Source: Escherichia coli (GTDB lineage: Bacteria > Pseudomonadota > Gammaproteobacteria > Enterobacterales > Enterobacteriaceae). From it: a DNA stretch of 64,000 nt. The stretch is taken from assembly GCF_045037415.1 (NCBI RefSeq), contig NZ_CP173438.1; one strand, written 5' to 3'. Within the stretch, counting starts at the first letter, position 1. The number at the start of each line of letters is the position of its first letter. Made by a program: the position numbers. Of the stretch, positions 3,901 through 6,900 are shown one piece after another.

Positions 3901-6900
3901 TGCCAGACGCCTTTATGCATGCCAATATCGGTCCGTCTGATTCGCCCATTACCCGTGCAATATTACGTGCAGACGCAGAGCTGAAGCAGGTTTCACCGAA
4001 CCTGACCTTTATCTACGATCCTGATATCACCCCTGATGACCTGCTGCTGGAAGTGGCGAAAAACGTCTGTGAATGTAGCAAACCGCACATCGCCAACGGT
4101 CCGGTGCATGATAAAATTTTCACAAAAGGGGGCTACGGGATTGTGAGCTGTTACAACTCACTGCCGCTGGCGGGTGGTGGCAGCACGCTGGTACGCCTTA
4201 ACCTGAAAGCCATTGCCGAGCGCAGCGAATCGCTGGATGACTTCTTTACGCGCACTCTACCGCACTACTGCCAACAGCAGATCGCCATCATCGATGCGCG
4301 GTGTGAATTCCTCTATCAACAATCACACTTCTTTGAGAATAGCTTCCTGGTGAAAGAAGGGTTGATTGATCCTGAACGTTTTGTGCCGATGTTTGGCATG
4401 TATGGGCTGGCGGAAGCGGTTAACTTGCTGTGTGAAAAAGAAGGGATTGCCGCACGCTACGGTAAAGAGGCCGCCGCAAATGAAGTGGGTTATCGCATTA
4501 GCGCGCAACTGGCGGAGTTTGTCGCCAATACCCCCGTGAAATATGGCTGGCAAAAACGCGCCATGTTACACGCACAGTCGGGGATCAGTTCCGATATCGG
4601 CACCACGCCGGGCGCGCGTTTGCCATATGGTGATGAGCCAGATCCGATTACCCATCTGCAAACTGTCGCCCCGCATCATGCTTATTATTATTCCGGCATC
4701 AGCGACATTCTGACGCTCGACGAAACCATCAAACGTAATCCGCAGGCGCTGGTACAGCTTTGCCTCGGTGCCTTTAAAGCCGGAATGCGTGAATTTACCG
4801 CCAATGTCAGCGGTAACGATCTGGTTCGCGTTACCGGTTATATGGTGCGTTTGTCGGATTTAGAAAAATATCGCGCCGAAGGTTCACGCACCAACACCAC
4901 CTGGCTGGGAGAAGAAGCCGCACGCAACACTCGTATTCTGGAACGCCAGCCGCGCGTGATAAGCCATGAACAGCAGATGCGCTTTAGTCAGTAAGATTAT
5001 CCCCTTCTCCTGCGTTGACGGGCCAGGCAGTCGTCTGGCTCTGTTTTTGCAGGGCTGCAATCTGCGCTGCAAAAACTGTCACAATCCGTGGACGATGGGA
5101 CGTTGCAATGACTGTGGGGAGTGCGTGCCACAGTGTCCGCATCAGGCGTTGCAGATTGTTGACGGCAAAGTGGTGTGGAACGCTGTGGTTTGCGAGCAGT
5201 GTGATACCTGCCTGAAGAGGTGTCCGCAACATGCCACGCCAATGGCGCAATCCATGAGCGTGGACGAAGTGCTTAGCCATGTCCGCAAAGCGGTGCTGTT
5301 TATTGAAGGGATAACGGTAAGCAGCGGCGAAGCCACGACCCAACTGCCGTTTGTAGTGGCGCTGTTTACTGCTATCAAAAACGATCCGCAACTGCGCCAC
5401 CTCACCTGCCTGGTGGACAGTAACGGTATGTTGAGCGAAACCGGCTGGGAAAAATTACTCCCGGTGTGCGACGGCGCAATGCTCGATCTCAAAGCGTGGG
5501 GGAGCGAATGTCATCAGCAATTAACCGGACGCGATAATCAGCAGATTAAGCGCAGCATCTGTTTGCTGGCAGAGCGCGGTAAGCTGGCGGAACTGCGTTT
5601 GCTGGTGATCCCTGGCCAGGTGGATTATTTGCAACACATCGAAGAACTGGCGGCGTTTATCAAGGGACTCGGCGATGTTCCGGTACGCCTGAACGCGTTT
5701 CATGCCCACGGCGTGTATGGCGAGGCGCAAAGCTGGGCGAGCGCCACGCCGGAAGACGTTGAGCCGTTGGCTGATGCGTTAAAGGTGCGCGGGGTGAGCC
5801 GGTTGATATTTCCGGCGCTCTATTTGTGACATGCCGGATACGGCCTACGGTTCGGCACAGACTTGTAGGCATGATAAGACGCGACAAGCGTCGCATCAGG
5901 CATTATGCGCCGACTGCCGGATGCGGCGTGAACGCCTTATCCGGCCTACGGTTCGGCACAGACTTGTAGGCATGATAAGACGCGTCAGCGTCGCATCAGG
6001 CATTGTGCGCCAACTGCCGGATGCGGCGTGAACGCCTTATCCGGCCTACGGTTCGGCACAGACTTGTAGGCATGATAAGACGCGTCAAGCGTCGCATCAG
6101 GCATTGTGCGCCAACTGCCGGATGCGGCGTGAACGCCTTATCCGGCCTACGGTTCGGCACAAACCTGTAGGCATGATAAGACGCGTCAAGCGTCGCATCA
6201 GGCATTGTGCGCCAACTGCCGGATGCGGCGTGAACGCCTTATCCGGCCTACGGTTCGGCACAAACCTGTAGGCATGATAAGACGCGACAAGCGTCGCATC
6301 AGGCATTATGCGCCGACTGCCGGATGCTGCCTACGAAGGGTAAACTACCCACTAACGCTAAACAACGCATACGTATTATTAAGCAACACTTCGGCAATCT
6401 CATCTTCTGGTTCCGGGCGCAACTCGCAAAGCACGTCAAACACCCGCACAGCCTGTTCCGGTCGGTTAGGCTGCCCCTGAAAGCCGTTGAGCGGCATATC
6501 CGGCGCGTCGGTTTCCAGCAACAACGATGCCAGCGGTAATTTTGCGATGACATCGCGGGTTTTACTGGCGCGTGGATAGGTGATAGTACCGCCTACGCCG
6601 ATTTTGTAGCCCAGCTGTACAAACCGCTCGGCCTGTTGCAGGCTGCCGGAAAAACCGTGAACCACGCCAGTGCACGGTAAATCGTGACGTTTAAGATGCA
6701 TCGCCAGTTTGTCGTGTGTACGCCGGGAATGAAGGATCACCGGCAGATCGTAGCGTTTCGCCAGTTTCAGCTGTTCGTCGAGTAACCACTGCTGCCTCTC
6801 AAATTGCGGATCGTCGCCGAAGAGATCCAGACCGATCTCCCCCACCGCCACCACCTTCGCCGGACGCCTTTCCAGCGCCTGCTGTAGCTGATCAAGAGAC

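Follow-up and report, generated by a model that had tools for sequence, protein, structure and literature searches.

The convergent genes yjjW and yjjV of Escherichia coli are separated by a tandem array of repeats, which raises the question of what kind of element this is, how it comes to have the length it has, and what it may do for the genes on either side. We addressed these questions in a 64,000-nt stretch of contig NZ_CP173438.1 (assembly GCF_045037415.1), referred to below as the window. The yjjW-yjjV array of the window is an ordinary, already catalogued E. coli BIME-2 array, which bears the name REP352 in K-12; descriptions of such arrays, of their links with gyrase and RayT, and of their variation in copy number between strains date back to the 1990s. 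It is very probable, in our opinion, that the window carries a five-unit allele of REP352, the length of which would change through unequal exchange or slippage, and which would have both 3'-UTR and gyrase-related roles.

Anatomy and class of the array

BIME-2 elements consist of Y and Z2 imperfect palindromes, each with a 5' GTAG, that alternate in inverted orientation (PMC3333891). The GTAG-plus-palindrome structure and the periodicity, both of which are required for BIME-2 identity, are present at this locus. Thus, TRF reports a period of 101, 4.8 copies, 97% matches, 0% indels and a score of 897 for positions 5841-6327, in agreement with the ~101-bp periodicity proposed in an earlier, sequence-only reading of this DNA, which placed the array at 5832-6335, i.e., within 1 bp of the limits given in Table 1. 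When the sequence is cut at every TGCCGGAT, the resulting units measure 83, 100, 101, 101 and 101 bp and are followed by a terminal remnant of 17 bp; unit 2 is 100 bp long because the loop of its Z2 REP lacks 1 nt. Single-base variants distinguish the units (GACAAGCG vs GTCAGCG/GTCAAGCG, and ACTTGTAGG vs ACCTGTAGG), as quoted previously.

The array comprises five Z2 REPs, four full Y REPs and two shortened copies of Y (mini-Y). The earlier description, a tandem BIME array in which Y- and Z-type REPs have inverted orientation, can therefore be refined to BIME-2, since the Z REPs are of the Z2 type. That every unit holds both a Y and a Z REP is correct for Z (5/5); a full Y is present in four of the five units, unit 1 containing a mini-Y instead. 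Chance is of no concern: the array contains four exact copies of the 34-nt Y sequence, and the two occurrences of the mini-Y pattern compare with an expectation of 0.01. Orientation alternates, with the GTAG of Y on the minus strand and that of Z2 on the plus strand. The Z2 REPs show 1-2 differences from the Z2 query, which is not a published consensus. The two linkers, peculiar to this locus, are short, 16 nt (from CTAC to GTAG) and 11-13 nt. The stems contain mismatches, GC/TT in Y and AA/GC in Z2; because these interrupt the stems and leave no exact 9-mer seed, an exact inverted-repeat search (seed 9) returned nothing for the array, and ViennaRNA folds were used instead.

Table 1. Features of the yjjW-yjjV region, in coordinates of the window
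Feature	Position	Strand	Evidence
yjjW, glycyl-radical enzyme activase, upstream convergent	4966..5829	+	ORF list; RefSeq annotation of matching genomes
Whole BIME-2 array	5832..6334	.	TRF; unit dissection and alignment
Left mini-Y TGCCGGATACGGCCTAC	5832..5848	-	Alignment to full Y; fold
Z2 REP 1	5865..5901	+	Fuzzy match, 2 mismatches; hairpin -15.2 kcal/mol
Y REP 1	5915..5949	-	Exact match; hairpin -21 kcal/mol
Z2 REP 2	5966..6001	+	Loop shorter by 1 nt
Y REP 2	6015..6049	-	Sequence match
Z2 REP 3	6066..6102	+	Fuzzy match to Z2
Y REP 3	6116..6150	-	Sequence match
Z2 REP 4	6167..6203	+	Fuzzy match to Z2
Y REP 4	6217..6251	-	Sequence match
Z2 REP 5	6268..6304	+	Fuzzy match to Z2
Right mini-Y TGCCGGATGCTGCCTAC	6318..6334	-	Alignment; fold
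5-bp hairpin GGGTA-AAC-TACCC	6338..6350	.	Sequence; fold; allele comparison
yjjV, TatD-family metal-dependent hydrolase, downstream convergent	6345..7127	-	ORF list; RefSeq annotation of matching genomes
Four Rfam naRNA4 (RF02564) matches	5868-5946, 5969-6046, 6069-6147, 6170-6248	-	cmscan 76.6-79.1 bits vs gathering score 59.5

Flanking genes and array ends

RefSeq annotation of matching genomes bears out that the array lies between yjjW and yjjV, which converge on it. It is extragenic and fills the whole gap between the two stop codons, beginning 2 nt beyond the TGA of yjjW (5827-5829). The short hairpin at its right, which contains the yjjV stop codon (CTA, 6345-6347, on the plus strand), is specific to the right-end allele of the window.

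Each end of the array is formed by a mini-Y, which is a Y REP with an internal deletion of 18 bp. The left and right copies share the same deletion, bounded by direct repeats of CGGC, one in each arm of the Y palindrome. A 4-bp stem remains in the left mini-Y (-6.8 kcal/mol), while the hairpin of the right one is gone (-0.6 kcal/mol); all internal Y REPs of the array are intact. Other alleles differ at the ends: at the left-end position, allele L008 has a full Y, and L011 and L134 have the form predicted to be ancestral, TGCCGGATGCGGCCTAC; the right-end position is occupied by a full Y in K-12, L002, L004 and L008. In alleles of the K-12 type, yjjV ends with a TAG stop that is part of the GTAG of this terminal full Y REP. 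The mini-Ys at both stops could reflect selection against stop-proximal REP hairpins that stall terminating ribosomes, while the remaining repeats would be maintained for the protection of 3' ends; in that case, adaptive "decapitation" of the terminal REPs would recur among BIME arrays. We consider this quite unlikely; the ordinary alternative is that repeats at the edge of an array escape homogenization and decay.

Allelic variation

Copy numbers were obtained by systematic sampling of 5,426 complete genomes of E. coli, and individual alleles were also read out. The suggestion that copy number varies among strains is well founded: the sampled E. coli carry 0 to 9 units, and a cryptic Escherichia species carries 11. 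Five units constitute the commonest class (24-31% of sampled genomes). Alleles with 0 or 1 unit are also common, at about 27-31%, and a long array is therefore clearly dispensable; much of the length variation at the locus may be neutral.

Orthologous arrays of 2 and 11 units are present in two cryptic Escherichia species; the longer, in Escherichia sp. MOD1-EC7003, comprises 23 REPs and is long for the BIME-2 class. The array is old, being present at this very locus, left mini-Y included, in these cryptic species as well. These orthologs come from a contig scan (298 Gb) with the 16-mer CCTACGGTTCGGCRCA, for which ~280 chance matches are expected. The matches listed cover at least 120 loci, 118 of which lack any REP that differs from Y or Z2 at 5 positions or fewer and were taken as chance; among the matches listed, only L111 and L134, the two from cryptic Escherichia, are real. 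Strain 4/1-1 is 100% identical to the window over positions 5300-6900. This strain also carries a prophage with a TIR-domain reverse transcriptase, which BLAST finds to be absent from the window.

Origin of length change

The structures of the alleles, as far as sequence can tell, point to unequal homologous exchange as the route of length change. Edge units are conserved and internal units variable; all four combinations of two linker variants are present within the array of the window; allele L011 contains a repeated 2-unit block; and L010 corresponds to the allele of the window with a block of 4 units duplicated. The main route of length change would thus be unequal homologous exchange, or slippage during replication, involving 101-bp units in register, with the transposase RayT/TnpAREP as a possible, unproven contributor.

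That RayT/TnpAREP acting on the units is the source of copy-number change is, in our opinion, rather unlikely, even though the substrate looks suitable. Binding requires GTAG and a mismatched stem, and cleavage requires CC|T in the inverted REP or linker (PMC3333891). GTAG and stem mismatches are found in every full REP of the array, and CC|T sites in the Z2 inverted REP (TGCC|TGAT and TGCC|TACA) and the Y inverted REP (GGCC|TACG), so that the array was rightly proposed as a target of REP-associated transposases as far as sequence requirements are concerned; the two mini-Ys, in which the stem is missing, should not bind RayT. Moreover, BIMEs are recombined by TnpAREP in vitro, and one or several units could be added in this way. 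However, rayT, the locus of which lies outside the window, was detected by Megablast in only 3,574 of the 5,426 complete genomes, while the yjjW-yjjV locus varies species-wide, and Ton-Hoang et al. could not link the presence of tnpAREP to REP number. In the alleles examined, blocks of 1, 2 and 4 units have changed in register with unit order kept, and the L010 junction lies within a stretch common to the edge units. In addition, REP352 is the sole one of eight stress-responsive REP regions that RAREFAN does not call RAYT-associated (10.1101/2024.07.17.603846). As the junctions lie inside identical repeats, the sequences by themselves do not discriminate between unequal exchange and the addition of units by RayT.

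Relation to known elements

The closest known counterpart is the orthologous locus of K-12 MG1655, named REP352a-h (bioRxiv 10.1101/2024.07.17.603846), which is the EcoCyc name for the yjjV-yjjW intergenic BIME; the K-12 RefSeq record lists no repeat_region features. The locus, flanking genes, unit, linkers and left mini-Y are the same in both strains. K-12, however, has four units and ends in the full Y that provides the yjjV stop, whereas the window has five and ends in a second mini-Y plus about 17 extra bases; YjjV is 260 aa long in the window and 259 aa in K-12. The arrangement of variants from unit to unit also differs.

The BIME-2 array of the yjdM-yjdN region, REP325 (naRNA1-6), which defines naRNA4, has the same tandem Y-linker-Z2-spacer organization with a period of 100 instead of 101 bp. 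The REPs of K-12 REP325 and of the yjjW-yjjV array are nearly identical (34/35 for Y, 34/36 for Z2), whereas the linkers have little in common (5/12 and 10/19 identical). The setting differs as well: REP325 is part of the co-directional yjdMN operon rather than being flanked by convergent genes, and in K-12 it is without terminal mini-Ys. As to BIME-2 generally (Gilson/Bachellier), of which MG1655 has 208 sites (PMC10592627, citing Espeli and Boccard 1997), the array shares alternating Y and Z2 REPs, short linkers, tandem amplification, an extragenic site and strain-variable copy number, itself a published property of the class (PMC3333891), and there is no difference in kind. BIME-1 (RIB/RIP) is likewise built of REPs and includes a Y REP, but has just one pair of REPs, Y-L-Z1, whose long L linker carries an IHF site. 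A BIME-1-type pair is present elsewhere in the window, at 43420-43517.

Possible functions of the array

The two local hairpins of a unit are stable (Y -21, Z2 -15 kcal/mol), and one unit as a whole folds at -40.9 kcal/mol in ViennaRNA (z = -4.3; z = -4.8 for the single-stranded DNA form), the minimum-energy fold being a single long Y:Z2 hairpin. No intrinsic terminator (a GC-rich hairpin followed by a T run) was found within 5832-6334; the only such site in 5500-6700 is at 6541-6559, inside yjjV. By analogy with REP325, which is a partly Rho-dependent attenuator as well as an mRNA stabilizer (bioRxiv 10.64898/2026.03.23.713779), the array is likely a two-way 3'-UTR element that combines mRNA 3'-end protection with partial Rho-dependent attenuation. 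Transcripts entering from either side would form stable hairpins, either of single REPs or of the long Y:Z2 type, at which 3'-to-5' exonucleases would be blocked and part of the read-through would end in a Rho-dependent manner, so that the two convergent operons would be kept apart. The same study reports that REPs between convergent genes accompany higher expression of both, that REP effects are context-dependent, and that terminal REPs do not generally lengthen mRNA half-lives.

In DNA, and independently of transcription, the Y REPs may serve as preferred gyrase binding and cleavage sites. This is expected from the class, as BIME-2 elements are enriched in gyrase cleavage sites and Y is cut more often than Z2 (PMC6379681). 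The gyrase association stated earlier for such arrays thus agrees with what is published for BIME-2 as a class; the gyrase Topo-seq supplementary files searched do not mention yjjV or yjjW. The claim that such arrays are IHF sites does not hold here: the IHF consensus WATCAANNNNTTR has no match within 5832-6334 and only one in the 64 kb (58892-58904), IHF binding being a property of the BIME-1 L linker (PMC3333891). There is accordingly next to no chance that the array is an IHF-binding BIME-1 (RIB/RIP-type) element, a reading for which the sole support is the general statement of the sequence-only reading together with the fact that BIME-1 L linkers do carry IHF sites. With Z2 rather than Z1 REPs, many copies, linkers of 11-16 nt instead of the long L motif, and no IHF consensus, BIME-1 identity is refuted at the sequence level.

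Other functions have to be weighed against the role in 3'-end protection and attenuation. A REP hairpin no more than 15 nt from a stop codon could stall the ribosome, induce trans-translation and thereby reduce the output of YjjW and YjjV. The original study of this 15-nt stop-codon effect is reportedly that of Liang et al. 2015, and the rule is cited here second-hand. The array does begin within this distance of the yjjW stop, K-12 REP352 figures in a list of REPs that fall within these 15 nt (10.1101/2024.07.17.603846), and in K-12-type alleles the terminal Y REP overlaps the yjjV stop codon itself. In the window, however, both stop-proximal REPs are the mini-Ys with little or no hairpin left, and the first strong hairpin lies ~40 nt past each stop, outside the limit; such a translational brake is therefore very unlikely to be the main function of the array. 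Read-through from yjjV might alternatively yield ~78-nt Y-linker-Z2 RNAs, similar to naRNA4, that bind HU and condense the chromosome. The array has four full-length RF02564 matches on the yjjV-sense strand, one per Y-linker-Z2 unit (plus-strand matches, at ~54 bits, fall under the gathering score), its architecture is that of REP325, and Qian et al. 2015 suggest that REP325-homologous sequences may share the role of REP325 (PMC4550694). These matches, however, are explained by the shared Y and Z2 REPs, the linkers being different; the promoter signal does not exceed chance (2 found vs 1.0 +/- 1.1 expected; match at 6333-6305); and the long Y:Z2 hairpin predicted for the unit departs from the two-hairpin consensus of the family. 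Furthermore, the nucleoid function of naRNA4, a discrete RNA of ~77 nt, is now disputed: deletion or overexpression of REP325/naRNA4 did not measurably alter nucleoid compaction or REP-REP contacts (10.64898/2026.03.23.713779) in a study whose authors include S. Adhya, of the original naRNA4 work. We consider a naRNA4-like gene cluster highly improbable. Lastly, both strands have ORFs of 47-91 aa that overlap the array or are contained in it, including two of 69 aa at 5996-6205 (-) and 6097-6306 (-) and two of 55 aa at 6003-6170 (+) and 6104-6271 (+). They are staggered by exactly one unit and are therefore by-products of the periodicity; they vanish or alter with copy number across strains, and RefSeq annotates no gene in the array in any genome examined. 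That the repeats encode small proteins is hardly conceivable.

Significance

The discovery value of these results is small, and their uses are practical. The attribution of IHF sites to this array is corrected. Rfam naRNA4 matches in E. coli simply flag BIME-2 units and should not be taken for dedicated sRNA genes. Finally, a clean allelic series at one locus is documented, extending from 0 to 11 units and including block duplications and hairpin-deleted end repeats. Such a series could be used to test REP number against the expression of convergent genes, and RayT against homologous recombination in the length change of BIMEs.

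Architecture and class of the array

The tandem REP array that the sequence-only reading had placed between yjjW and yjjV is confirmed at that position. Tandem Repeats Finder reports a period of 101 bp over 5841-6327 (4.8 copies, 97% matches, 0 indels, score 897), and splitting the sequence at every TGCCGGAT yields units of 83, 100, 101, 101 and 101 bp plus a 17-bp remnant, spanning 5832-6334. The REP types and orientation given in that reading also hold: Y and Z2 REPs alternate, and adjacent REPs are inverted, because the GTAG of Y lies on the minus strand and that of Z2 on the plus strand. 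The single-base variants quoted between copies are present in the sequence, and the flanking genes are convergent both in the ORF list and in the RefSeq annotation of matching genomes, where the upstream neighbours of yjjW and yjjV are yjjI and yjjU, respectively.

Features of the array locus and of other sites in the window
Feature	Position	Strand	Remarks
yjjW (glycyl-radical enzyme activase)	4966-5829	+	ORF list; name from RefSeq annotation of matching genomes
Left mini-Y (Y REP minus 18 bp)	5832-5848		
Z2 REPs (n=5)	5865-5901, 5966-6001, 6066-6102, 6167-6203, 6268-6304		GTAG on +
Full Y REPs (n=4)	5915-5949, 6015-6049, 6116-6150, 6217-6251		GTAG on -
Right mini-Y	6318-6334		
yjjV (metal-dependent hydrolase)	6345-7127	-	ORF list; name from RefSeq annotation of matching genomes
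Overlap of two BLAST segments to strain 4/1-1	11130-11171		42 bp
BIME-1-type pair	43420-43517		between yjiR and an Rpn-family recombination-promoting nuclease gene (mapping to strain Esc20)
IHF-consensus match	58892-58904		AATCAAATTTTTG
Lone Y REP	58904-58937		between uxuB and uxuR
Lone Z2-like REP	63555-63590		between convergent gntP and fimH

The full Y REPs are 35 nt each and identical (4/4). Two linkers alternate, the first of 16 nt, lying between CTAC and GTAG (GGTTCGGCACAGACTT or ...CAAACCT) and the second of 11 nt (TGTGCGCCAAC or TATGCGCCGAC). The predicted RNA folds amount to about -21 kcal/mol for Y and about -15 kcal/mol for Z2; the inverted-repeat finder missed these stems. Both types contain internal stem mismatches (GC/TT in Y, AA/GC in Z2), which are required for binding by TnpAREP, the REP-associated transposase (RayT; Ton-Hoang et al., PMC3333891). 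A Y-linker-Z2 unit is predicted to favour, as RNA, one long Y:Z2 hairpin (-40.9 kcal/mol, z = -4.3); as single-stranded DNA the predicted fold reaches -25.9 kcal/mol (z = -4.8).

By the published definition (PMC3333891), the array is a BIME-2, since its tandem copies are built of Y and Z2 REPs with short linkers and lack the L motif. The element is already known and its locus already named, and within this well-described class it is ordinary. The K-12 allele is REP352a-h of EcoCyc, with a 2-nt overlap with yjjV (bioRxiv 10.1101/2024.07.17.603846); the MG1655 sequence agrees with this description, holding 1 mini-Y and 8 full REPs, with the yjjV TAG within the GTAG of the terminal Y. REP325, the yjdM-yjdN BIME-2 array, has the same build, with a period of 100 as against 101 bp, and is identical at 34/35 positions in Y and 34/36 in Z2, whereas linker identity is just 5/12 and 10/19. 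Because the array shares the build of REP325, which defines naRNA4 (Rfam RF02564), it returns four full-length minus-strand matches to that family (76.6-79.1 bits; gathering score 59.5). These matches detect common REPs and no dedicated gene; naRNA4 matches in E. coli appear to mark BIME-2 units generally. For the unit at 5969-6046 (-), the single long hairpin of -40.9 kcal/mol is predicted, versus the two-hairpin naRNA4 consensus (about -36 summed).

The associations with gyrase (PMC6379681) and with REP-associated transposases (PMC3333891) proposed by the same reading are correct for the class. That with IHF does not apply: IHF sites belong to the L linker of BIME-1 (PMC3333891), and the array holds 0 matches to the IHF consensus. 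The 64-kb window contains a single exact match, which is within chance (2.7 expected).

Elsewhere in the window, the BIME-1-type pair joins a diverged Y REP to an inverted Z1 REP through an AT-rich linker of 35 nt. A lone Y REP, identical to those of the array, adjoins the IHF match, and the lone Z2-like REP differs by 3 substitutions and 1 deletion from the Z2 query sequence used, which is not a published consensus. Across the region around 11130-11171, strain 4/1-1 is otherwise 99.9-100% identical to the window (BLAST), but between prfC and yjjG it carries a ~45-kb lambdoid prophage with a TIR-domain anti-phage reverse transcriptase, absent from the window; the prophage annotation was discarded as window content, since collinearity ends beyond 11.2 kb (BLAST). 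The 42-bp overlap of BLAST segments looks like an unoccupied attachment site.

Copy number among genomes

Copy number is strain-variable, as had been suggested, ranging from 0 to 9 units in sampled E. coli genomes. Sample 1 was a systematic 59 of 5,423 genomes matching the array-free allele of FORC_082; because this query is array-free, arrays of any length are bridged. Sample 2 comprised 39 genomes, also systematic, matched with the window itself, so that counts above 5 units are undetectable.

Array units per genome in the two samples
Units	Sample 1	Sample 2
0	4/59	2/39
1	12/59	10/39
2	13/59	7/39
3	6/59	3/39
4	7/59	5/39
5	14/59	12/39
6	1/59	
7	1/59	
9	1/59	

The commonest class is 5 units, about 24-31% of the sampled genomes, which are database entries and should not be counted as independent lineages. 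A base-by-base reading of representative alleles showed that those of 6, 7 and 9 units are genuine arrays, insertions being ruled out. There are 2 units in O157:H7 and 4 in K-12. A 16-mer scan of genome contigs proved too unspecific.

In FORC_082 (731-766 of the allele), a single 35-nt Y REP is the entire 33-bp yjjW-yjjV spacer. The lone Y of array-free alleles begins 2 nt past the yjjW TGA, and its GTAG provides the yjjV TAG stop; thus the two convergent genes share one hairpin as their 3' end. The orthologous array with its left mini-Y is present in two cryptic Escherichia species, with 2 and 11 units; therefore, the array and its left-end deletion are older than E. coli diversification. The allele of Escherichia sp. 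MOD1-EC7003 (3230-4353; 11 units followed by a terminal Y, with 23 REPs in about 1.1 kb) is the longest among those compared, and its between-unit divergence exceeds that of any E. coli allele.

Matches to rayT among 5,426 complete genomes (Megablast) fall in three identity bands (>=99%, 95-99% and 90-95%). About one-third of complete E. coli genomes have no close rayT copy, and all of these keep BIME arrays.

Origin of the array ends and of length variation

The terminal mini-Ys are the sole non-textbook detail of the array. Both lack the identical 18 bp, and the internal Y REPs are intact (4/4). The loss is consistent with slippage between CGGC direct repeats, one in each stem arm, by which TGCCGGATGCGGC/GTGAACGCCTTATCCGGC/CTAC would become TGCCGGATGCGGCCTAC. 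The predicted product is found unaltered in strain 1008S19 and in MOD1-EC7003, and each mini-Y of the window is 1 base away from it. A full Y stands at the left end in TUM11352 and at the right end in K-12 as well as several further strains, so the mini-Ys are derived forms. The left deletion is common to the window and the cryptic species, and the right deletion is confined to one of the two right-end alleles, that with ~17 bp extra and a YjjV longer by one residue.

The predicted mini-Y hairpins are essentially gone (-6.8 and -0.6 kcal/mol). Although the array starts 2 nt past the yjjW TGA, the first strong hairpin of the window allele begins ~40 nt beyond each stop codon. This hairpin loss at both stop-codon-proximal REPs is, in our opinion, the only mildly new point here; it probably reflects the ordinary decay of edge repeats, and an adaptive reading seems unlikely.

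As to length, among strains with the window's right end the two outermost units are conserved and the internal units differ. Inside the window's array the two linker variants are found in all four combinations, which indicates exchange between units. A 2-unit block is present twice in 1008S19, and a further allele equals that of the window followed by a second copy of units 2-5, its junction lying within a ~60-bp stretch common to units 1 and 5 and bearing a 19-bp slippage deletion. Judged from sequence, such in-register, order-keeping block changes are the expected outcome of unequal homologous exchange or replication slippage. RayT may possibly contribute: the array sequence offers everything RayT requires of a substrate, and TnpAREP recombines BIMEs in vitro (Ton-Hoang et al.). 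Against RayT as the main driver, rayT was detected in only 3,574/5,426 complete genomes (Megablast), REP352 alone among eight stress-responsive REP regions was not called RAYT-associated by RAREFAN (bioRxiv 10.1101/2024.07.17.603846), and Ton-Hoang et al. failed to tie tnpAREP presence to REP number.

Possible function

The array is the sole sequence separating two convergent operons, and scans found in it neither an intrinsic terminator nor a promoter signal above chance. Deletion of REP325 with Northern analysis showed that read-through is attenuated, in part Rho-dependently, and that upstream mRNA is stabilised, nucleoid compaction being unaffected; genome-wide, convergent pairs with an intervening REP are more highly expressed (10.64898/2026.03.23.713779). 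BIME-2 elements are enriched in gyrase cleavage sites, mostly in Y REPs and independently of transcription (PMC6379681), and tend to fall between supercoiling regions (PMC10592627). Because of these findings on REP325 and its class, together with the position of the array and its absence of terminator and promoter signals, we suggest with moderate confidence that it may act as a two-way 3'-UTR hairpin block and gyrase site. Given how common alleles of 0 or 1 unit are, the length of the array is in itself probably near neutral.
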